This document shows positions 4,394 to 42,803 of a stretch of DNA of 45,380 nt, piece by piece. Both the position numbers and the translations under genes were made by a program. Every line of letters starts with the position of its first letter. Position 1 is the first letter of the stretch. The notes below the pieces were generated by a model that ran no database searches, was not told the DNA's origin, and worked only from the letters and a program-made list of their open reading frames with translations. The stretch is from Candidatus Sulfobium sp. (GTDB lineage Bacteria; Nitrospirota; Thermodesulfovibrionia; Thermodesulfovibrionales; UBA6898), in the NCBI GenBank assembly GCA_037380845.1, contig JARRRI010000022.1:13767-59146 (forward strand), read 5' to 3'.

Positions 4394-6118
4394 CTATCTG
4401 ATGTAAGCTTCGGTGACGTATCTGCGCATCATGCGGTGGCTGTTGAAGTAATAGGCCACCTTGCCGATCGCATTCTGCATCATCCTTATCCAGGTATGCC
4501 TGTCGTTATAGTAGAGGGGAATGACAATATTTTCGAGCTTGTCATAAAGATCCGCAACGTCCTTTACGTCGGTGTCCGTGCCGGGTGTCAGCTCATTCGG
4601 GGGCGGGCCTATGGACCAGCCAGTGAACCCTTCTATATGTCCCTCTATCCACCAGCCGTCCAGAACGCTGAAGTTCATGATGCCGTTATGGGCGGCCTTC
4701 ATTCCGCTGGTCCCCGATGCCTCGAGTGGCCTGAGAGGGGTATTCAGCCAGACGTCCACACCGGATACTATCTTCAGCGCAGTCTCCATATTGTAGTTCT
4801 TCAAATACACGATGTTTATGCTTCCCCTGAGCCGTTCCGCATAGCCGAAAATATTCTGAATGAGCTTCTTGCCTGCCTCATCCTGTGGGTGGGCCTTCCC
4901 GGCGAAAACCAGCTGAATCCTGCCCGAACCAATCCTCTCCAGCCTGTCGAGGTCTCTGAACAGAAGGTCGGCCCTCTTGTAAGCCGTGGTCCTGCGGGCG
5001 AAGCCTATGGTGAGGACATCGGGGGAAAATTCGGACCCCGTCGTCTTCCTTATATAGTCAATGAGAATCCGCTTGGCTTCCCGGTGGGCGTCCCAGAGCC
5101 TCTCGTCGGGAATGCGCCCGACCCTTACGAACAGCTCGGCCTCGTTTGCCCACCCCGGCAGGTATTCATCGTACAGCCTCTTGAAGCTCTCGCAGGTCCA
5201 CGTATAGGAATGAACACCGTTGGTTATGGCGTGTATCTGGTATCCCGGGAACATGCTCTGGGATACCTCTCCGTGTTTTTTTGCGACCCCGTTGATGTAG
5301 CGGCTCAGGTTGAGGGCAAGGTTCGTCATGTTGAGGTGATCCTTTCCCGCCAGCTCCTTCAGGACCTGAAGGGGAATGAATTCCCCCATGACCTGGGTAA
5401 CAAGGTCGTAGGGAAACTTGTCATGCCCGGCCTCCACCGGCGTATGGGTGGTAAATACGCAAAGGTTCTTCACCCTGGAAGTGTCCCAGACGAGTTTCTC
5501 GTCCCATACATCCTCTATGGGCCTCTTGAACCTGCTGAGCAGTTCAAGAGTCAGGAAACTCGCATGGCCTTCGTTCATGTGGTACTTCTTTATTTCGAAC
5601 CCCATCTCATGCAGGATTCTCACCCCGCCGATCCCCAGCACTATCTCCTGCCTGAGCCTGTAAGACTTGTCCCCTCCGTAAAGATAAGAGGTAATGTCCC
5701 TGTCTTCCGCCGAATTTTCCACGAGGTCGGTGTCGAGGAAAAATACGGGCACCGAGCCCCCGGTGAGACTTCTGACGTTGTATTGCCAGGCCTGTATAAC
5801 GACTTCCCTTTTCTCTATCAGGACCATCGCCCTCTGAGGCAGAAGCTCCATATACCGGGAAGGTTCCCACTCCGACGGATACTCCATCTGCCTTCCCGCG
5901 GCATCGATGTCCTGCGTAAAGTAGCCTTTCCTGGCCAGGAGGGTAACGGCCACCATGGGCAGCTCAAGGTCGGCAGCCGACCGTATGGTATCCCCGGCGA
6001 GGACTCCCAGTCCGCCGCTGTAGGTAGGGATATCATTATGGACGCCTATCTCCATCGAAAAATAGGCGATCTTCGGCTCTCTGGTCAGGTCAAGGAGTTG
6101 ACTTAGAAGGTCGGCCAT
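4394..6118 (-). CDS. glgP: alpha-glucan phosphorylase, short form
   Basis: YFSMEIG, YSGGLGVLAGD, HMNEGH and EASGTSGMKA (PLP lysine); start reassigned to ATG 6118. Confidence 0.93.
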   Translation of the reverse strand: MADLLSQLLDLTREPKIAYFSMEIGVHNDIPTYSGGLGVLAGDTIRSAADLELPMVAVTLLARKGYFTQDIDAAGRQMEYPSEWEPSRYMELLPQRAMVLIEKREVVIQAWQYNVRSLTGGSVPVFFLDTDLVENSAEDRDITSYLYGGDKSYRLRQEIVLGIGGVRILHEMGFEIKKYHMNEGHASFLTLELLSRFKRPIEDVWDEKLVWDTSRVKNLCVFTTHTPVEAGHDKFPYDLVTQVMGEFIPLQVLKELAGKDHLNMTNLALNLSRYINGVAKKHGEVSQSMFPGYQIHAITNGVHSYTWTCESFKRLYDEYLPGWANEAELFVRVGRIPDERLWDAHREAKRILIDYIRKTTGSEFSPDVLTIGFARRTTAYKRADLLFRDLDRLERIGSGRIQLVFAGKAHPQDEAGKKLIQNIFGYAERLRGSINIVYLKNYNMETALKIVSGVDVWLNTPLRPLEASGTSGMKAAHNGIMNFSVLDGWWIEGHIEGFTGWSIGPPPNELTPGTDTDVKDVADLYDKLENIVIPLYYNDRHTWIRMMQNAIGKVAYYFNSHRMMRRYVTEAYIR

Positions 6119-6124
6119 AGCAAT

Positions 6125-6153
6125 ATTGTAAGCAATTTGCGGGACGGAAACAA
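6125..6153 (-). promoter_or_regulatory. sigma70-type promoter, leaderless start at glgP
   Basis: TTGTTT-17 nt-TACAAT-6 nt-ATG; no SD. Confidence 0.6.
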
Positions 6154-6171
6154 CTTTTGCGCAGAAGCCGG

Positions 6172-6200
6172 TTGCCGAAACACGGCTGCCTGAGTATACT
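6172..6200 (+). promoter_or_regulatory. sigma70-type promoter for the MgtE-N/NRAMP operon
   Basis: TTGCCG-17 nt-TATACT. Confidence 0.55.
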
Positions 6201-6243
6201 TTAGGGCAAGCCTCTGTTTTCACTGCAGAATCCGGGAGATTCG

Positions 6244-7506
6244 ATGTCATTTTACGGCGAAGTCTTTGCAAGCGAGATAATGAAGAAGCCCGTCCTTGAC
6301 CCGAAGGGTGAAGAGATCGGCCGTGTCAGGGACTTCGTCGTCGTAAAGGGTGAACAGCTCCCCAAGGTGTCCGCCCTTGTCGTCGAAATACGGAAACAGC
6401 CCTTCCTTCTTCCCTGGAACGATCTGAACATCTTCAACAAAAGGATCATCTCTTCCACGGTATACGGCGATGCCCTGCAGCCATATGAACCCGGAGAGGA
6501 GGACCTGCTGATCGTCAGGGACATCCTGGACAAGCAGATTGTTGATGTCAACGGCGCGCGGGTGGTGAGGGTCAATGATGTCAAGCTGGAGGGCCTCAAC
6601 ACCAACGCCGTGCTGGTCGCGGTGGATGTGGGGGCCAGGGGGATCATGCGGCGCCTCGGGGTGGAGAGGGGCGGAGAGGACCTGTTCAGACTGTTCCAGA
6701 AGACGCTTCCCTATTCGCTTATCAGCTGGAATTATCTGCAGCCTCTTGAGCCGAAACTCACCAGGATAACTCTTACCGTGCCGAGGCAGATGCTTTCGGA
6801 GCTGCACCCTGCCGACATCGCGGAAATCATCAGCAGCGTATCCCAGAAGGAGGGCGTAAGTTTCTTCAACAACCTTGCTGTCGAGACGGCCGCGGAGGCG
6901 CTTTCCGAACTCCAACCCAATGTGCAGAAGGATATCATCAACAGGATGGACAGCAGGAAGGCCTCGAACATCATCGAAAAGATGCCCCCCGACGAGGCGG
7001 CAGACATATTGAGCGACCTGCCGGCGGAAAAGGCCCAGGAAATCCTGGAACGCATCGAGAAGGAGGACGCGGAGGACATCCAGGAACTCCTGGGCCATGA
7101 GGAGGACACGGCGGGCGGCCTGATGACGAACGTGTTTGTCGCCTGTCCTCCCGACATGACGGTCCGGGATGCCTCGGAGCGTCTGAAGGTCCAGGCCAAA
7201 GATGTCGAGACCGTATATTACATTTATGTGCTTGACGCGGAAGAGAAACTGATCGGCATCTGCTCCCTGAGGGAGTTCCTGCTTGCGGAGCCGGACTGCA
7301 TCCTGGCCGACATCATGGAGACGAACCTCAAGACCGTTTCGCCGGGGGATGACGAGATGGACGTCGCTGCAATCATATCCAAGTATAACCTCCTCGCCAT
7401 CCCCGTGGTGGACGAAGGAGGCTATATGCACGGGATCGTGACGGTGGACGACATCATCGATATCCTGCTGCCGCCCGCCGCAAAACGCAAGAGGAGAAAG
7501 GTATGA
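6244..7506 (+). CDS. soluble PRC-barrel / MgtE N-terminal / CBS-pair protein
   Basis: LHPADIAEI, EDTAGGLMT and GIVTVDDIIDI motifs; no MgtE membrane domain. Confidence 0.85.
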   Translation: MSFYGEVFASEIMKKPVLDPKGEEIGRVRDFVVVKGEQLPKVSALVVEIRKQPFLLPWNDLNIFNKRIISSTVYGDALQPYEPGEEDLLIVRDILDKQIVDVNGARVVRVNDVKLEGLNTNAVLVAVDVGARGIMRRLGVERGGEDLFRLFQKTLPYSLISWNYLQPLEPKLTRITLTVPRQMLSELHPADIAEIISSVSQKEGVSFFNNLAVETAAEALSELQPNVQKDIINRMDSRKASNIIEKMPPDEAADILSDLPAEKAQEILERIEKEDAEDIQELLGHEEDTAGGLMTNVFVACPPDMTVRDASERLKVQAKDVETVYYIYVLDAEEKLIGICSLREFLLAEPDCILADIMETNLKTVSPGDDEMDVAAIISKYNLLAIPVVDEGGYMHGIVTVDDIIDILLPPAAKRKRRKV

Positions 7507-8744
7507 GCAGGTGGAAAAGGCTGCTCCTCTTTCTCTCCATCATGGGGCCGGGCATCATAACCGCCAACATCGACAACGACGCAAGCGGTATCACCACTTA
7601 CTCGGTTGCCGGGGCCAGGTTCGGCTATACACTTTTGTGGACGCTCATTCCCACCACCGTCGCCCTCGTCGTCATCCAGGAGATGGTGGCCAGGATGGGA
7701 GCGGTTACGGGAAAAGGGCTCTCGGACCTCATACGCGAGAACTACGGCGTCAGGGCCGCCTTCTTCATGATGGTCGCCCTCTTCGCCGCCAACCTCGGCA
7801 CCACTGTATCGAACTTCGCAGGGTGGGCGGCCAGCATGGAGATTCTCGGATTGAGCAAATATATCATAGTGCCGGTGGGCGCCACGGCGGTCTGGCTCCT
7901 GGTCACGAAGGGGAGTTACCGCACCGTGGAAAGGATACTCCTTGCGGCCTGTCTCCTCTATTTCGGTTATGTGATATCCGGCCTCATGGCACATCCTTCA
8001 TGGCCCGGCGTGGTAAAAGGTACCTTTCTCCCCGCGGTCAGATGGAACGCCGAATATGCCTATATCACCATAGCCATCATCGGGACCACCATCACCCCCT
8101 GGATGCAGTTTTACCTCCAGTCCTCGATAGCGGAAAAGGGCGTCAAGAAGGCCGAATACAAGGCAACGAGGCTGGATGTCATCCTGGGATGCAGCATTAC
8201 GGACGTCATAGCCTTCTTCATCATCGTGACCTGCGCCACCACGCTTTTCCCCGCGGGACTTCGCATAGACAAGGCGTCGGAGGCGGCCTATGCCCTGAAA
8301 CCCCTTGCCGGTCAATATGCATCCCTGATCTTTGCGGTGAGCCTGGCAAATGCCTCGCTGCTGGGCGCTATCATCGTCCCGCTCGCCACGTCCTACTACA
8401 TTTGCGAGGCGATGGGATGGGAGCGGGGCGTGAACAAGACCTTCAGGGAGGCGCCGCAGTTCATGTGGATCTATACGATCATCATAGTGTCGTCCGCCCT
8501 GCTCATTCTTCTGCCCGGCGCGCCCCTGGTATTTCTTATGGTGCTTTCCGCAGTAGTGAACGGCCTGCTGCTGCCGTTCGTGCTCGTATATGCCCTGTCC
8601 CTGGTAAACAACAGGAAGCTGATGGGAGAATACGTCAACCGCCGGTCCTATAATTACATATCCTGGGGTACGGTGGCCGTCATCATTGTCCTCACGGGAT
8701 TTCTGATAGTGTCCACCCTGGTCCCGTTGCGGAGCGGATCCTGA
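7503..8744 (+). CDS. NRAMP-family divalent cation transporter (Mg2+-type clade)
   Basis: GPGIITANIDNDASGITTYS and GTTITPWMQF; many TM segments; ATGA overlap with the upstream gene. Confidence 0.88.
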   Translation: MSRWKRLLLFLSIMGPGIITANIDNDASGITTYSVAGARFGYTLLWTLIPTTVALVVIQEMVARMGAVTGKGLSDLIRENYGVRAAFFMMVALFAANLGTTVSNFAGWAASMEILGLSKYIIVPVGATAVWLLVTKGSYRTVERILLAACLLYFGYVISGLMAHPSWPGVVKGTFLPAVRWNAEYAYITIAIIGTTITPWMQFYLQSSIAEKGVKKAEYKATRLDVILGCSITDVIAFFIIVTCATTLFPAGLRIDKASEAAYALKPLAGQYASLIFAVSLANASLLGAIIVPLATSYYICEAMGWERGVNKTFREAPQFMWIYTIIIVSSALLILLPGAPLVFLMVLSAVVNGLLLPFVLVYALSLVNNRKLMGEYVNRRSYNYISWGTVAVIIVLTGFLIVSTLVPLRSGS

Positions 8745-21994: not shown

Positions 21995-22097
21995 TGCCAC
22001 GTAAGACTGAGGGCCTTAGGGGCTATGCGGAGTTCAGGATATGGACTTTTTCAGCATGTTCGCCTCTCTTTGAGCCTGATCAGGATAGAATATGGGT

Positions 22098-23318
22098 ATG
22101 TTGAGACTGTTTAATTCACTGGGGAAGAAGATGGAAGAGTTCCATCCCATCGACAAAAAAGAGGTCGTGAATATCTTTACCTGCGGACCTTCGGTCTATC
22201 AGAGGGTCCATATAGGCAATTTCAGGACGTTCCTCTTCGAGGACGTCCTCGTGCGGTACCTGGAATATTCCGGTTACAGGGTGCAAAGAGGGATGACCAT
22301 TACGGACGTCGAGGACAAGGCGATCGAAGAAGCTGCAAAGAAGAGGAACGGGCTGTACCGGCTGGCCGAGGAAAACATAAGGAGGTTCCTCAGAGACGCT
22401 AAACTGCTACGCATAAAGGTCCCGGACTTCCTTCCCCGGGCGTCGGAAAGCGTGGAAGAGGCGGTGGACCTGATAGAGTCGCTCCTCCGAAAGAAGGTGG
22501 CCTATTGGCATGAAGACAACGTATACTTCGATCCACTGAAGTTCCCCGGCTTCGGGAAACTCTACGGCCTGGACATGTCAAGGTGGCCTTCAAAAAAGAG
22601 GAGGTTTCACAAAGACACCTATCCGGGAATGAGATGGAACCTCGGGGACTTTATTCTATGGCACGGATACAAAGACGGCGAGAAATATTACTGGGACACG
22701 AAGATAGGCCGGGGGAGACCAGCCTGGAACATCCAGGACCCCGCGATGGTCAGCCGGTACTTCGACGAACCTCTGTCCGCCTACTGCGGCGGTATCGACA
22801 ATCTGGTGAGACATCATGACTATACATGCGCCGTCCTTGAGTCGGTGAGGCCGTACCCGGCCGCGAAGTTCTGGCTCCATTGCCGGCATCTCCTCGTGGA
22901 AGGCAAAAAGATGTCGAAGAGCAAGGGAAACATCCACTATACGGACACACTTCTGAAGAAAGGTTACAATGCAGAGGAAGTCAGGTTCTTCCTCATCTAC
23001 GGCCGCTACCGAAGGCGGCTCAACTTCTCGGACACTGCTCTGAAATCGGCAGCAGGGAAACTGGGCCGGTTCAGAAAATACGTTAAGGAGATAAAGGCAA
23101 GGGCCGTCGCCGGGAGGACCGTCCCCTGCGATGTCTCACGACGGCTACATTCGGTCTTCATCGAAAAGATGGACGAAGACCTCGACGTAAAATCGGCCTT
23201 CGATGCGATGCAGGACGTGCTTTGCCGGGTAAAGGCGGAAGAATTGAAACCCGGCGAAGCCGTGCATGTTCTGAAGACACTGCGGGAAATAGACAAGGTC
23301 CTGCAGGTCGTCTTTTAG
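22098..23318 (+). CDS. cysteinyl-tRNA synthetase-like paralogue (class I aaRS fold, divergent active site, no anticodon domain)
   Basis: CGPSVY, HIGN and KMSKS present; GRPAWNIQDPAM and HHDYT replace GRPGWHIECSAM and HHENE; about 406 aa. Confidence 0.85.
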   Translation: MLRLFNSLGKKMEEFHPIDKKEVVNIFTCGPSVYQRVHIGNFRTFLFEDVLVRYLEYSGYRVQRGMTITDVEDKAIEEAAKKRNGLYRLAEENIRRFLRDAKLLRIKVPDFLPRASESVEEAVDLIESLLRKKVAYWHEDNVYFDPLKFPGFGKLYGLDMSRWPSKKRRFHKDTYPGMRWNLGDFILWHGYKDGEKYYWDTKIGRGRPAWNIQDPAMVSRYFDEPLSAYCGGIDNLVRHHDYTCAVLESVRPYPAAKFWLHCRHLLVEGKKMSKSKGNIHYTDTLLKKGYNAEEVRFFLIYGRYRRRLNFSDTALKSAAGKLGRFRKYVKEIKARAVAGRTVPCDVSRRLHSVFIEKMDEDLDVKSAFDAMQDVLCRVKAEELKPGEAVHVLKTLREIDKVLQVVF

Positions 23319-23407: not shown

Positions 23408-23818
23408 TCACTTACCGCCAAATTCTTTTTCGACCCTTTCCTTTATCTGTTTTACTGTATGTCCCTGCTTATACAACTCGGAAGCCATCAAGGCCTCCCT
23501 GAGACAAATATTTCAAGTTGCAGCGTGGCCGTCAACATAGCAGCTAAGAAGACTCTTGTGTCTAAATGCAGGGGACTCTTCACAAAGACAGGCGCAGTAG
23601 AGGCTGTCCAGTACCCAGGGGATGTTTTTTGCAGCCTGGTGGGCCTGTCTCAACCAGGAATTAGTAAACGTGTCAGGGTTGAGGGTTTCTCTTGTCTCCC
23701 CGTATCTCAGGGACTGGTCGAACCTGCCGCTTGCGTACCTGTCGGCTGCTTCCGCAGTTCCCGCAATCAACAGGACGGCAATTGCCATACCGTACAATAC
23801 GACATTCAAGCGCCTCAT
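23408..23818 (-). CDS. PCYCGC/CYCxC-type secreted protein, probable selenoprotein (UGA at 23513-23515)
   Basis: Signal peptide; LYCACLC and HKSLLSCYVDGHAAT-TGA-NIC; reading frame continues 34 codons to ...EKEFGGK*. Confidence 0.85.
23477..23503 (-). promoter_or_regulatory. candidate bacterial SECIS hairpin
   Basis: CTC-AG-GGAGGCC-TTGAT-GGCTTCC-GAG stem-loop starting 9 nt after the UGA. Confidence 0.55.
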
Positions 23819-24108
23819 GTTATTACCTCGCTTTCATATGTTTTTATAAAAGTAACTTATTATTGTGAAGAAATATTGAAATTTCAAGCTCTTTTGAAGA
23901 TGTAAGGCCAAGGGCACATTTTCTTATGGACAGACACGAAGAATAACGCCATAACTATGCAGCTGATATCATGGGTAGGCGAGGGATCGAAGAGTGCCGA
24001 ATATGGATGGCCGGGGAATAATCAAGAATAAAGACCTGGCCCCTCGGACCTCTCTGTCCGGCGTGCACCCTCCACAAATATGCCGGAGATCGGATCTGTA
24101 AAAAGTTT

Positions 24109-25684: not shown

Positions 25685-26188
25685 CTACTGGGAATATCTG
25701 CCTTTTGGCAGAGGGTTTTTGAACGCATCCGGAAGAACAAATTTCACACTGTCTTCGACTCTGCCTTTTTTCACGGTCACCTCAAGTTTCCACTTTCCCT
25801 TTTTCTTCAGATGAAGTCCCGAAACAATGTAGAGTCCGTTGCCCCTGTCCTTTATCGTCGGGGTCAACTTGGAGCTCTTGCCGCTGGTGAGATCCGTGAG
25901 GACAAAACTTAGCTCCGCGCCCTTAACGTCCTCGTCGCGGGCATTATGGACTACGATGCCGATGACGTTCTTCCCGATGTTGTACTCTTCGTCATTGGGA
26001 AGGATTTCCACACTGTACGCCGCATGATCCGTAATATCGAAGAGTGTCTTCTGAAAATGCTTTGTGAAGACCGCCTTGGCGCCGTTTGCAAATCCTCCTT
26101 GCTGATGAGCATCGCACGGGAAATTGCCCGCAGCCAGGGCCACTATCATGACGACTGCGGCCATTCCGCAGGATATGGAAACCTTCAT
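25685..26188 (-). CDS. secreted YtkA/FixH-like Ig-fold protein
   Basis: Signal peptide; GNGLY...GKWKLEVTV pattern; AGGAGG RBS. Confidence 0.7.
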   Translation of the reverse strand: MKVSISCGMAAVVMIVALAAGNFPCDAHQQGGFANGAKAVFTKHFQKTLFDITDHAAYSVEILPNDEEYNIGKNVIGIVVHNARDEDVKGAELSFVLTDLTSGKSSKLTPTIKDRGNGLYIVSGLHLKKKGKWKLEVTVKKGRVEDSVKFVLPDAFKNPLPKGRYSQ

Positions 26189-26322
26189 TTTTCTCCCTCC
26201 TCACTTCTTTGTTGTTAAGTGTAGTCCAAAACGTAAAAGGAAGCCAGAGGGCAAGGGTAAAGATTGTAAGTGGGATCGCGGACGTTGCTTCTAATCGTTT
26301 GTCTTCTCCCCGCTTGATTGTT

Positions 26323-26346
26323 AAAAGGCGGGCCGGTAAACCCGCC
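26323..26346 (-). terminator. intrinsic terminator of the cold-shock gene
   Basis: GGCGGG-loop-CCCGCC-TTTT. Confidence 0.65.
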
Positions 26347-26371
26347 ATGTTTTCTGCCTTTTTGGAGTCTT

Positions 26372-26569
26372 CTATTCTTTTACTACGTTGACAGCCTTTG
26401 GTCCCTTTGGGCCCTGTTCGACATCGAACGTCACCTGATCACCTTCAGCAAGCGACTTGAAGCCGCTTCCCACGATAGAGGTATGATGGACAAAAACATC
26501 GGTTCCATCTTCGGCTGTAATAAATCCGAATCCCTTTGAGTCATTGAACCACTTTACTGTTCCCTTCAT
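26372..26569 (-). CDS. cspA: cold-shock protein
   Basis: [17 protein letters not shown]...DVFVHH (RNP1/RNP2). Confidence 0.95.
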
Positions 26570-26885
26570 AGTACTGTTGTTCTCCTTGCGATATGAAATA
26601 AACAAAAACAGGACAAAATGCCCCGTGGTCACCGCTTAAAAAGCGACACTTTGTTAATAGCACTAATAAGCGAGAAAAGCAACATTATTATTCTATTATG
26701 CGGCAAAGAAAGTGGATAAAGCTTGCTTTTTCCGGCATTCTCTCATTTTTCTGGCGCGGATAGTGAAGCAGCAAGACACTTTTAAGTAGACGTAAAGCGC
26801 CTGTCATAGTATGATGTGATAAAAAGGGATGTCTGTTTTAGCTGAAAATGAATATCTTTAAAATTCCTTTCAAAAAGGAGGTTTT

Positions 26886-38429: not shown

Positions 38430-39753
38430 TCAGTCCATTTCCTGGAGGTTGCCGAAGGTGGCCACAATCACCTCCGGGAGCGCAGGATGTATATGCATGG
38501 CCTTGCCTATCGACCATATGTCCATATCGTTCGCCATGGCGTTGATGACCTCCTGGATAAGCATGGAGGCGTAGGGTCCTATGATATGAAACCCGAGGAT
38601 CTTACCGTCCCTGTTTACTATAGCCTTCGCGAAACTCTCTTCTTCCATCATCGCCTCGCCCCGGGCGACCTCGGAATATTTTGCCTTGCCCACGAGCAGT
38701 TCTTTCGTATCGAACTGTTGCCGCGCCTGTTCTTCAGTCAGACCCACCGATGCAATCTCCGGCCAGGAAAAAACGGCATGGGGGGCGGAGCGGTAGTCCA
38801 TGGCATTCCTCTTGTCATGCCCCACGTTGTCCCACAGGAGCGACGCCTCCCGGTTGGCTACATGCCGGAACATCTTCTTTCCGATGGCATCTCCGAAGGC
38901 CCAGACGTTCTTTTTGCTGGTCTCGAAATATTCATTCACCTTTATATAGCCGCGGTCGTCCGTTTTTATCCCGCTTTTTTCCACCTTGAGCAGGTCGGCG
39001 TTCGAAGTCCTGCCGGCGGCGATCATGATCTTTTCCGCCTGGAACCGGGCCGTTTTGCCCGATGACAGGTCCCTGGCCACAATGGTGTACCCTGGAGACT
39101 CTCTTTTCACTTCCACAGCCTCCGTCTCAGTGTGGACTTCCATCCATCTCCCCATCTCTTTTCCCAGGAGAGCCGATATCTCCGGCTCTTCGTCCGGCAC
39201 CAGCCGGCTATTGGCCTGGATGAGAGTCACCTTTGTCCCCATGGCCGAGAAGAAATGAGCATATTCGGCCCCTATGTAACTCGTTGGTGAGGCAGTCCTC
39301 CTTGTCGATTCCCTTGACGTCGGGGATGCGGGCGCGCGCGCCGGAGGCGAGGAAGATCTTCCCGCCCCTGATCTGTTCACCGTTTACCTCAAGGACGGAG
39401 TCCTTCACGAAGTATCCCGTGCCCTCATAGAAGTCCAGGGTCTCCGAAAACCTGATACCCTCGCGTATATGGTTTTCGCCTTCAGACACCGTGCTTCTCA
39501 TCCTCTCCATGATCCTGCCGAAATCTACTCCCTTGATCGCCGCGGAAACGCCCAGTTTTCCGGAATCCCTTATCTCGGAAACCCTGTCGCCGGGGTAAAT
39601 GAGCATCTTCGAGGGTATGCAGCCCAGGTTAAGACAGGTCCCTCCCAGCGGGCCCTTATCCACCAGGGCAACGGAGAGATCATGGGCCAGCGCTTTCTCC
39701 ACGATCAGCAGCCCTGCGCCCGATCCTACGACGATCACATCATACTCTTTCAT
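38430..39753 (-). pseudogene. dihydrolipoamide dehydrogenase-like flavoprotein disulfide reductase, broken near 39279
   Basis: GSGAG and GGTCLNLGCIPSK in one frame; YIGAEYAHFF...HIHPALPE in another; the segment leading into the NAD-binding GxG motif is missing. Confidence 0.85.
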
Positions 39754-39831
39754 AAGAACATCCTCCGCAAGGAAAAGTTGCTCCTTTTTTCATTATGTCA
39801 GGAAAAGGGCCAAAAGATAAGAACATGCGGG

Positions 39832-39866: not shown

Positions 39867-40793
39867 ATGAAGGCTTATCTTCTTTACAGCGTCCTGATAT
39901 TCGCGGCCGTATCATGTTTCCCCACGGCCTCCCCTGCCACACGTCAGTATGCACAAGAGACAGGGTTTCCCTGCAGGAAGTGCCACATCGATGCCGCCGG
40001 CGGCGGACCGCTTACCGGGACGGGCGAGCGGTTTCTCTCGGACCTGAAAAAGAAGGGGCTGTACCGGCCTCTTGGTCCGGTGTAGAAGATCCTGAGACTC
40101 CTCGCAGGATTTATGCATCTTCTCACGGCCATCGCCTGGTTCGGGACCATACTCTACGTTCATATTCTCCTGAAGCCTTCATATGCCTCCAAGGGGCTTC
40201 CCAGGGGAGAACTTCTTCTTGGGTGGGTGTCCATCATGATCATAGCAGTCACCGGGACAATCCTGACGGCAGAGAGAATGCCGTCGCTCAATTCTTTCTT
40301 GACTACGCGGTTCGGCATACTGCTCAGCATAAAGATATTTCTTTTCCTCCTCATGGTCACGACAGCGACGCTCGTCACTTTCTTTATCGGCCCGAAGATG
40401 AGAGAAAAGATGAGGAAGCAGAAAGGGCTTCCTGCGTCAGGAGAAGAAGAGGATTTCAGTATTGCGGAACTCAACGCCTTCGACGGCAAGGAGGGAAGAC
40501 CGGCCTATGTTGCATTTAAAGACAATGTTTATGACGTAACAGAAAGCAGGCTCTGGAGGGACAGTTTCCACATGAGAAAACATTCAGCGGGGACCGATCT
40601 GACCGGGATGCTGAAGACAGCTCCCCACGACGAAGACAGGGTCCTTGCGATGAAGAGGATCGGCAGACTCAGATCCGAAGATAAGAAGCCGCGACCATTT
40701 CATGAGAGACTCTTCTATCTCTTCGCCTACATGAACCTCGCCCTTGTTTTCCTGATCGTCTTCGTGATCGCACTGATGAGATGGGGACAATAG
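39867..40793 (+). pseudogene. monoheme c / CopD-like membrane / cytochrome b5-like fusion with in-frame TAG at 40083-40085
   Basis: Signal peptide and CRKCH; TAG; then in frame HLLTAIAWFG TM region and FDGKEGRPAYVA...VYDVTES..W...H...HSAGTDLT...PH (b5-like). Confidence 0.8.
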
Positions 40794-41915: not shown

Positions 41916-42803
41916 CTAATAAATAAACGTGGCAGGGTCCCTGAGGGGGTGGCAGCGGTCGCAGAGGCCCTTCGCCTCTTTCTTCCCTATCGACCAGGTG
42001 TGCGCCTTGTGGCAGTCAAGGCAGTTCAGCTTCTCCTTCGTCATATGCAGTTTATGCTGGCCCACTTTAAGCTCGGTGCCGTGGCAGTTCTTAAGGCAGT
42101 CATCGCTGGTCGGCTGGATCCGGCCGTGGGGATGATGGCAGTCGAAACACCTGAGTTTCGACATCGGTCCTGATGAAGGGTAATGCTTGTGGCAGCCGAG
42201 ACACCTGTCATTGGATATCATTTTCGGCTGCGCTTCCGTATAACTGTGGCACTTGAGGCAGGAAAGTTCGGCCATGCCCCCTATGCCGTGTATGACCTTG
42301 TCCGCGTGACATTCGGCGCATGCCTGCTCGTTGGGTGCGAAGGTATGGAGCTTGCCGCTGTGGCATTTGCTGCATCCTATCTTGAGCATGAACACGTGCC
42401 GGGCGTGTCCATAGGACTTGTTCAGGGTAACCGACCCCTGCTCCACGTCAGACAAATGGCACTCCTTGCATGCATGCCACGGGGAGATCCTCCCGTGCTT
42501 CTGCTCGGCGGACTTGCCGCCCTTGACCACGTAAGCTACCAGCATCCTGTTCTGTTCGAGGATACTCATCTCGTGACATCGCTGACACGGATAGTCCCTG
42601 TGTTTGCTCATCTGCCAGGACCGGTATGCCTCCTGCATCATGTGGCAGGATTTGCAGAAATTCGGGTCGTACCGCGTGTACCGGTAATATCTGTATCCTA
42701 CGACCGCACCTGCGGCGGTAATGATCAGAAGCAGAAGCACTATCGCCTTCTGGTTTTCCTCCAGCAGGCCGTGAAAAAAAGAAGACAGTCTTTTCTTACC
42801 CAT
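41916..42803 (-). CDS. membrane-anchored multiheme cytochrome c (NapC/NirT-like N-terminus)
   Basis: One TM helix; 10 CxxCH plus one CxxxCH (CLKNCH). Confidence 0.9.
   Translation of the reverse strand: MGKKRLSSFFHGLLEENQKAIVLLLLIITAAGAVVGYRYYRYTRYDPNFCKSCHMMQEAYRSWQMSKHRDYPCQRCHEMSILEQNRMLVAYVVKGGKSAEQKHGRISPWHACKECHLSDVEQGSVTLNKSYGHARHVFMLKIGCSKCHSGKLHTFAPNEQACAECHADKVIHGIGGMAELSCLKCHSYTEAQPKMISNDRCLGCHKHYPSSGPMSKLRCFDCHHPHGRIQPTSDDCLKNCHGTELKVGQHKLHMTKEKLNCLDCHKAHTWSIGKKEAKGLCDRCHPLRDPATFIY

Follow-up and report, generated by a model that had tools for sequence, protein, structure and literature searches.

The DNA considered here, referred to as the window, is a 45,380-nucleotide stretch of Candidatus Sulfobium sp. 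(Nitrospirota; contig JARRRI010000022.1, positions 13,767 to 59,146). Its minus strand carries a short gene of the CYCXC family, and this gene very probably encodes a selenoprotein. Under translation table 11, the open reading frame (ORF) is 23513..23818 (-) and yields a 101-residue product with the C-terminus ...SCYVDGHAAT. When the TGA that follows is translated as selenocysteine (Sec, U), the frame continues as U102-NICLREALMASELYKQGHTVKQIKERVEKEFGGK to a second TGA, for a total of 136 residues. A preliminary description of this DNA had proposed an ORF ending in GHAAT, a TGA, and an in-frame continuation to a stop at 136 residues. Minus-strand translation reproduces that reading, and the span 23408..23818 assigned to it is correct, the gene lying on the minus strand. 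The features of the gene, including a hairpin resembling a selenocysteine insertion sequence (SECIS), are as follows.

23408..23818 (-): the whole gene of the probable CYCXC selenoprotein, 136 codons plus a terminal TGA, with the ATG at 23818..23816; it has NF041379 and PF13798 matches
23513..23515 (-): in-frame UGA, codon 102, interpreted as selenocysteine from the aligned codons in 80 related loci
23408..23410 (-): true stop codon, also TGA, 34 codons past the Sec codon, from the frame translation
23504..23515 (-): UxxC motif, U102-N-I-C105, at the start of the modelled long helix 103-117
23582..23596 (-): CxCxC motif that gives the family its name, C75-A-C77-L-C79, its Cys residues invariant in the alignment
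23480..23498 (-): SECIS-like hairpin from the comparative fold, with a 7-bp stem GGAGGCC/GGCUUCC and the loop UUGAU (23491..23487)
23747..23818 (-): probable Sec-type (export) signal peptide, with MRR, a hydrophobic run and AEA/AD (cut AEA|AD), from inspection of the N-terminus by eye
23826..23829 (-): Shine-Dalgarno-like GAGG, 7 nt 5' of the ATG, from sequence inspection
23859..23887 (-): sigma-70-like promoter match, TTGAAA-17 nt-AATAAT, 10/12 positions, weak evidence

The scan that gave the promoter match found 2 sigma-70-like sites in 900 bases, against 0.8 +/- 1.0 in shuffles.

Family membership and conservation across the UGA

Two profile models place the protein in a known family. NCBIfam NF041379, an equivalog named 'CYCXC family (seleno)protein' (OS_HP4), matches with 113.3 bits (4e-33; cut-off 90). 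The match takes in profile positions 1-89 of 90 and residues 42-133, so that it crosses the UGA, and the segment beyond the UGA, the tail, is required for the score. Pfam PF13798 (PCYCGC) matches residues 56-133 with 30.4 bits against a gathering cut-off of 25. With both models above their cut-offs, the earlier assignment to the PCYCGC/CYCxC family stands. The same NCBIfam model gives 122.8 bits for the closest relative, L001, which has the Sec form, and 129 bits for L079, which has Cys at the same site.

That Sec-containing members of this family were probably already catalogued had also been surmised, correctly so: the NCBIfam name includes '(seleno)protein', and the relevant passages of two reviews (PMC9312934; PMC13188914) list the OS_HP4 or CYCXC family protein, with PF13798 and a UxxC motif, among prokaryotic selenoproteins. 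The locus is thus a further member of an already catalogued selenoprotein family, and its novelty is low. The history of the name is less tidy. OS_HP stands for 'Olavius symbiont's hypothetical protein' in the available text of PMC1976440, the source cited for OS_HP4, yet the names in that text are OS_HP1-3 only. There is no OS_HP4 in the GOS paper, and the main text of the BSepDB paper contains none of the terms CYCXC, OS_HP4, PF13798 or Nitrospir.

Compared with the NF041379/OS_HP4 proteins, the window copy has the same CxCxC and the same UxxC with Sec in first place, and there is no structural difference. The comparison with PF13798 at large, which includes lipoproteins of Bacillales, is one of common plan and different detail. 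The three-Cys motif and further conserved Cys residues are common to both; the portion of PMC13068155 that treats the PCYCGC lipoprotein describes three motif Cys plus four more conserved Cys. Here, the motif reads LYCACLC rather than PCYCGC, a probable signal peptide takes the place of the lipobox, and one Cys is replaced by Sec. Cys-form relatives have lipobox-like N-termini.

The meaning of the UGA was examined through related sequences. A genome scan gave 185 pattern matches and 122 confirmed relatives, of which the best 80 loci were kept (the L-numbers used here). The nearest relative among the loci kept is in a Candidatus Sulfobium metagenome-assembled genome (MAG), at 75-79% identity. 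A protein search gave 279 relatives at E <= 0.001 among 311 candidates, mostly of about 101 residues. In the 80 loci, the codon aligned with the UGA is TGA in 63, TGC in 13, TGT in 3 and a masked NGA in 1. Among 13 database homologues, 10 stop exactly one residue before the UGA position, 2 have Cys there, and 1 has been translated with W. The two Cys homologues, P0075 and P0097 (YCDIC and HCDIC), and the W-translated one all run on into the conserved tail. Thus, the expectation of Cys opposite the UGA is borne out, by TGC or TGT in 16 of the 80 loci and by Cys in the two database homologues. The expected H-x-x-x-C-x-x-C is likewise seen in the homologue alignments; in the window, the motif is H98-AAT-U102-NI-C105.

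The tail was then compared with its surroundings by mean pairwise identity at each codon position, using the 62 Sec-form sequences whose tails run to 33 codons or more. For codon positions 1/2/3, identity reaches 0.83/0.87/0.54 over the 33 codons that follow the UGA and 0.82/0.84/0.47 over the 33 that precede it. In the 99 nt past the final stop (55 sequences), it is 0.29/0.27/0.28. The tail shows the codon-position pattern of coding DNA and is therefore under protein-coding selection. Its length is also steady: of 65 Sec-form rows, which comprise the window and 64 loci, 55 have a tail of 33 codons. In the same 65 rows, the final stop is TAG in 28, TAA in 22 and TGA in 14, and one contig ends first. 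Within the window, TGA terminates 13 of 33 Pfam-supported genes, and there is therefore no general reassignment of the code.

A protein alignment of 78 sequences, i.e., the window, 61 Sec forms and 16 Cys forms, was assembled after dropping L065 (upstream stops), L028 (masked codon) and L062 (contig end). The invariant residues before the Sec site are E41, A63, D71, C75, C77, C79, H87, S89, L90, L91, C93, D96 and H98. At and past the Sec site, they are U/C102, C105, E108, A109, A112 and I125. The UxxC motif proposed from a UGA at a Cys position is thereby upheld, U/C102 and C105 being invariant in 78/78 sequences.

One MAG has two CYCXC copies, L065 (340..716) and L025. The L065 copy keeps the TGA and the hairpin, has two stops in its 66 upstream codons, and may be a decayed duplicate or a misassembly.

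The hairpin 3' of the UGA

The window and 63 Sec-form loci were aligned without gaps and folded together with RNAalifold. A single 7-bp stem is predicted, columns 24-30 pairing with columns 36-42, which correspond to window positions 23498..23480. The hairpin, at 21-22 nt past the UGA, is kept in 64/64 Sec forms, and in 61 of these, all seven pairs can form. The preliminary description had placed a GC-rich stem-loop 9 nt after the UGA. A GC-rich stem-loop does exist, and its conserved stem starts 14 nt, not 9 nt, after the UGA. A lower stem, starting 6 nt past the UGA, appears in the single-sequence fold only.

The pairs 24-42, 28-38, 29-37 and 30-36 are invariant or nearly invariant G-C or C-G pairs; columns 24, 30, 36 and 42 are third codon positions. 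The pair 27-39 varies and is GC in 28 sequences, GU in 22, AU in 13 and broken in 1. The variation is coordinated: A27 occurs with U39 in 13/13 cases, and G27 occurs with U39 in 22/51 (Fisher p = 1.2e-4). Counting the extra pair 31-35, 98.4% of cells in the alignment are paired, a level reached by 0/500 shuffles. If the partner is slid by one column, 66.5% or 68.1% are paired. When the hairpin codons are omitted, third-position identity in the tail falls from 0.54 to 0.47, a drop consistent with a constraint on the RNA in addition to that on the encoded protein.

Sec and Cys forms differ in folding energy. In the 45 nt after the codon, the minimum free energy (MFE) is -15.4 +/- 1.9 kcal/mol for the 64 Sec forms vs -9.1 +/- 3.6 kcal/mol for the 16 Cys forms (Mann-Whitney p = 2e-7). 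As to known bacterial elements, the bSECIS model, as given in the pertinent passages of PMC13188914, has an upper stem of 4-16 bp, a loop of 3-9 nt, 16-37 nt from the UGA to the loop and an MFE <= -7.5 kcal/mol. The window hairpin agrees with all four of these rules: its stem has 7 bp and its loop 5 nt, the loop lies 21 nt from the UGA, and the energy is -13.1 kcal/mol. To summarize, its position within the coding sequence 3' of the UGA, its stem, loop length, spacing and energy are shared with bacterial SECIS elements, and the position of a loop G is different. No Rfam family matches the hairpin, either at gathering thresholds or at E <= 1.

Protein structure and gene neighbourhoods

The protein is predicted to be mostly helical. 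AlphaFold2, run on the 78-sequence alignment, gives a helical fold with a mean predicted local distance difference test score (pLDDT) of 88.5 and a predicted template modelling score (pTM) of 0.76. Modelled helices are at residues 54-65, 67-70, 90-93, 98-101, 103-117 and 122-134, and there is a low-confidence N-terminal helix at 4-32. UxxC is at the start of the longest helix, where the block-mean pLDDT is about 96-97. The conserved, helical tail anticipated in the preliminary description is thus met with in the codon-position identities, the alignment and the modelled helices alike. The probable signal peptide suggests that the protein is exported.

For the gene neighbourhoods, ORFs within 4 kb of the gene were clustered by BLASTP over all loci, and the counts below refer to loci with enough downstream DNA. 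Among the clusters are a resistance-nodulation-division (RND) pump and a tetratricopeptide repeat (TPR) protein.

YtkA-like gene: Sec-form 37/62, Cys-form 0/15
Outer-membrane efflux protein: Sec-form 29/50, Cys-form 0/12
CusB-like adaptor with a heavy-metal-binding domain: Sec-form 25/43, Cys-form 0/10
RND pump: Sec-form 24/43, Cys-form 0/10
TPR protein: Sec-form 0/60, Cys-form 15/15
ResB: Sec-form 0/50, Cys-form 12/12
AhpC/TSA thioredoxin-like protein: Sec-form 4/43, Cys-form 10/10

The Sec forms of Nitrospirota head an operon with a YtkA-like gene and a CusCBA-type heavy-metal efflux system. In L001, the order is CYCXC, a 127-residue ORF, the outer-membrane protein, the CusB-like adaptor and the pump, the last scoring 1216 bits for 'CusA/CzcA family heavy metal efflux RND transporter'. 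The deltaproteobacterial Cys forms head a ResB/CcsA cytochrome c maturation (System II) cluster. In L079, this cluster comprises a TPR protein with the CcmH/CycH domain PF23914, ResB, CcsA and a thioredoxin.

A third arrangement was found among Sec-form loci that lack both the YtkA-like and the outer-membrane genes. There are 16 such loci, and 13 of them and a fourteenth, L051, were scanned for neighbours. A ResA/TlpA-like thioredoxin gene lies directly downstream in five: in L033, L056, L058 and L059, the order is CYCXC, thioredoxin, DUF4416, and in L044, the thioredoxin is present without DUF4416. Two further loci have YHS-domain proteins and a heavy-metal P-type ATPase.

In the window itself, the neighbours are a downstream convergent gene for a protein resembling cysteinyl-tRNA synthetase (CysRS) and, upstream, PhoH2. 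One gene recalls the neighbourhoods of the relatives and is a possible functional partner.

25685..26188 (-): YtkA-like gene, 1.9 kb upstream on the same strand, PF13115 at 2.5e-06

This ORF is the only linked gene; it has 40% identity matches to the ORFs right after CYCXC in L017 and L026, and its identity to the YtkA-like protein of L032 is just 18%. In the passages available from PMC13068155, YtkA (CtaK) is described as a copper-delivery protein.

Elsewhere in the window, a cold-shock protein gene (26372..26632) is spanned and preceded by a sub-threshold match to the cspA thermoregulator leader at 26320..26687 (-), with 41.3 bits (gathering 78) and E = 2.3e-07. It is the sole Rfam match in the window at E <= 1. 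Further copper- or cytochrome-related genes are found 17-19 kb from the selenoprotein gene. One (40113..40793, +) encodes a membrane protein in which a CopD-like part is joined to a cytochrome b5-like domain, and another (41916..42803, -) encodes a multihaem cytochrome c of the c7/c3 type.

Decoding, function and alternatives

Taken as a whole, the likely explanation, held with good confidence, is that the locus encodes a 136-residue exported CYCXC selenoprotein, the UGA of which is decoded by means of the hairpin and which may carry a periplasmic metal or thiol site. It is proposed that UGA codon 102 would be decoded as Sec by SelB and Sec-tRNA(Sec), recruited by the 7-bp GC-rich hairpin within the coding sequence, with its loop 21 nt 3' of the UGA. 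Translation would then continue for 34 codons to the second UGA, which is without such a hairpin. The mature protein would be small and mostly helical, bringing together C75-x-C77-x-C79, H87, C93, H98 and U102-x-x-C105. The protein would most likely serve as a periplasmic selenolate/thiolate site for soft metals, chiefly Cu(I), or for partner thiols, which it would bind or process by redox chemistry. A site of this kind is proposed because close relatives head YtkA/CusCBA operons or adjoin ResA/TlpA-like thioredoxins.

As to the decoding apparatus, we infer that the residue inserted is Sec rather than another and that the host has selA, selB, selC and selD. Published passages describe selC nested in selB in Nitrospirae, and those of PMC5389517 that concern selC*-bearing genomes, including Thermodesulfovibrio, credit them with the full Sec apparatus. 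ARAGORN found four tRNAs in the 80 loci, two of them of the Sec type; none of the four bears on Sec insertion by the host of the window. In L079, directly upstream of the Cys-form CYCXC gene, there is a block at 4663..7600 (+) with selD (TIGR00476, 360 bits, cut-off 125), a phosphofructokinase gene and a tRNA-SeC (anticodon TCA, 6989..7084).

A number of points weigh against this explanation. Within the 45-kb window, there is no selA, selB, selC or selD, no tRNA and no second selenoprotein gene, and the host's capacity for Sec insertion is assumed from relatives. SelA, SelB and SelD domains are absent from the 47 window ORFs scanned. The search for a second selenoprotein covered 155 TGA-containing frames, 39 of them mostly outside Pfam-supported genes; 20 of these 39 frames and 5 unassigned ORFs were compared with NCBIfam and matched 0 families. 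As to the hairpin, the bSECIS rule of a G in the first two loop positions is broken in the window, where the loop is UUGAU and the G comes third; 47 of 64 family members obey the rule, and, in the relevant part of PMC13188914, a subset of real bSECIS elements is said to deviate from the model. The single-sequence fold has an MFE of -19.0 kcal/mol and z = -1.76, with 13/200 shuffles folding at least as well. Because this fold is not beyond chance, the comparative evidence is relied on. That evidence has a limit of its own: in a quick tree, one branch, with a support of 100 in the Shimodaira-Hasegawa-like approximate likelihood ratio test (SH-aLRT), splits 62 Sec forms from 16 Cys forms. The 63 TGAs therefore represent a single event, and the hairpin contrast between Sec and Cys forms is not a set of independent trials.

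The remaining points of this kind concern function. In the PDB, the family profile has no sequence match at E <= 1, and the model has no fold match at E <= 0.001. The Pfam label of each neighbour cluster comes from one representative. The YtkA-like and outer-membrane genes are both missing in 16 of the 50 Sec-form loci with at least 2.3 kb of downstream DNA. Finally, the window copy is outside any metal-efflux operon, its relatives being in one in 24-29 of 43-50 Sec-form loci; its nearest relative is 75-79% identical, and the window copy differs from it in being without the downstream YtkA/CusCBA genes.

A split pyridine nucleotide-disulfide oxidoreductase gene (38430..39789, -) was considered as a second selenoprotein and rejected, its two pieces being in different frames. 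The pieces overlap, the N-terminal one has the motif CLNLGC, and the break is a frameshift or assembly error near 39210..39380 rather than an in-frame UGA.

What the site does is a matter of graded proposals. A role in periplasmic copper or heavy-metal handling, suggested by the gene context of the relatives, is plausible, if somewhat short of probable. CusF is a periplasmic copper chaperone that works with CusCBA, and its ligands are Met, His and Trp. By context, the CYCXC protein resembles the chaperones of the CusF/CusCBA and YtkA/CtaK systems, as in relatives it is a small, probably exported protein heading a CusCBA-type operon beside a YtkA-like gene. It has no sequence or fold relation to them, and its candidate ligands are Sec, Cys and His. 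A more specific version is tentative and rather doubtful: Sec, with the CxCxC motif and the His and Cys residues, might ligate Cu(I), and the protein might then supply YtkA-like chaperones and exporters of the CusCBA or P-type ATPase kind in Nitrospirota, or act as their sensor; the Cys branch would perhaps serve cytochrome c maturation.

The best-surviving alternative accepts the same selenoprotein and assigns UxxC another task. Under it, the motif would not be a metal site; it would be a redox centre for thiol-disulfide (selenenylsulfide) chemistry on partner cysteines, much as CcmH or ResA is in the maturation of cytochrome c. CcmH, a helical protein with a CxxC, works in the periplasm in System I of cytochrome c maturation, and redox CxxC motifs are typically found at a helix N-terminus, as UxxC is in the AlphaFold2 model. 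The likeness extends to the neighbourhoods: the Cys-form gene is first in a cluster with TPR (15/15), ResB (12/12) and AhpC/TSA (10/10) proteins, the TPR protein being of the CcmH/CycH type and CcsA being present in L079, and a ResA/TlpA-like gene is directly downstream in the five Sec-form loci named above. Both proteins are small, helical and extracytoplasmic, with the CxxC at a helix start. In the Foldseek search, the N-terminal domain of E. coli CcmH (2kw0) comes top, at E = 2.4, probability 0.33 and a TM-score of 0.52 on the target; this match falls well short of significance and is no more than a lead. Pfam gives no CcmH match at E <= 1. Sequence similarity to CcmH is lacking. CYCXC proteins have five more invariant Cys or His residues, which suggest a metal or cluster site, and in the window's own Sec-form clade, metal-efflux neighbours dominate, with ResB in 0/50 and TPR in 0/60. 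On balance, the redox centre is an unlikely but live reading of the site.

A second alternative, and a very improbable one, is that the UGA is recoded as Cys, or as Cys and Sec, by a selC*-type tRNA(Sec)-like tRNA(Cys), for instance under selenium shortage. Some of its elements can be recognized. In L051, about 3 kb from the Sec-form gene, a sequence at 4599..4688 (-) is a tRNA-Sec by Rfam (RF01852, 53.7 bits, gathering 47) with the anticodon GCA; ARAGORN calls it a 91-nt tRNA-Cys. Transglutaminase-like, LysR and PALP genes lie around it. The tRNA agrees with the selC* class of tRNA(Cys) in PMC5389517, which, in the passages at hand, reports such tRNAs in Thermodesulfovibrio and Nitrospirae, with opal-reading variants served by a CysRS without the anticodon-binding domain. 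The window's convergent CysRS-like gene (22092..23318, +) encodes a 408-residue protein without the C-terminal anticodon-binding part, which reaches 293 of the 340 bits required by TIGR00435, over profile positions 1-400 of 466, with HIGN in place of HIGH and KMSKS kept. However, the L051 tRNA decodes UGC/UGU and not UGA, and the window yields none of this kind, even at E <= 1. In the other loci, the CYCXC genes do not adjoin the CysRS-like gene, the product of which belongs to a large family of about 405 residues in Nitrospirota and deltaproteobacterial MAGs, for which the NCBI name is merely 'class I tRNA ligase family protein'. Moreover, those passages of PMC5389517 confine the opal-reading selC* with CysRS* to a subgroup of Desulfobacterales.

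Least credible of all is an ordinary stop with a 101-residue product, the downstream frame being non-coding, a decayed remnant or a sequencing error: the public gene calls of about 101 residues, the Sec machinery not seen in the window and a single-sequence hairpin not beyond shuffles speak for it, but the tail has the codon-position pattern of the upstream coding part, lost right past the second stop, keeps its 33-codon length in 55/65 Sec-form rows, has C105, E108 and A109 invariant in 78 sequences, is translated straight through in the Cys-form homologues, and carries the NF041379 score.

To return to the exported CYCXC selenoprotein, the selenoprotein itself will not surprise specialists. 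What is added here is the size of the Sec clade in Nitrospirota, a conserved in-frame hairpin with one covarying pair, and two contrasting gene contexts. The public gene calls, here and in most of the relatives, break off at residue 101 and so miss UxxC and the conserved helical tail; with the UGA taken as Sec, the family member is complete again. The two contexts turn the function of the family into testable hypotheses. If the copper-ligand proposal were true, it would give a role to a family that so far has a name, and Sec would join the ligands of copper homeostasis in bacteria.

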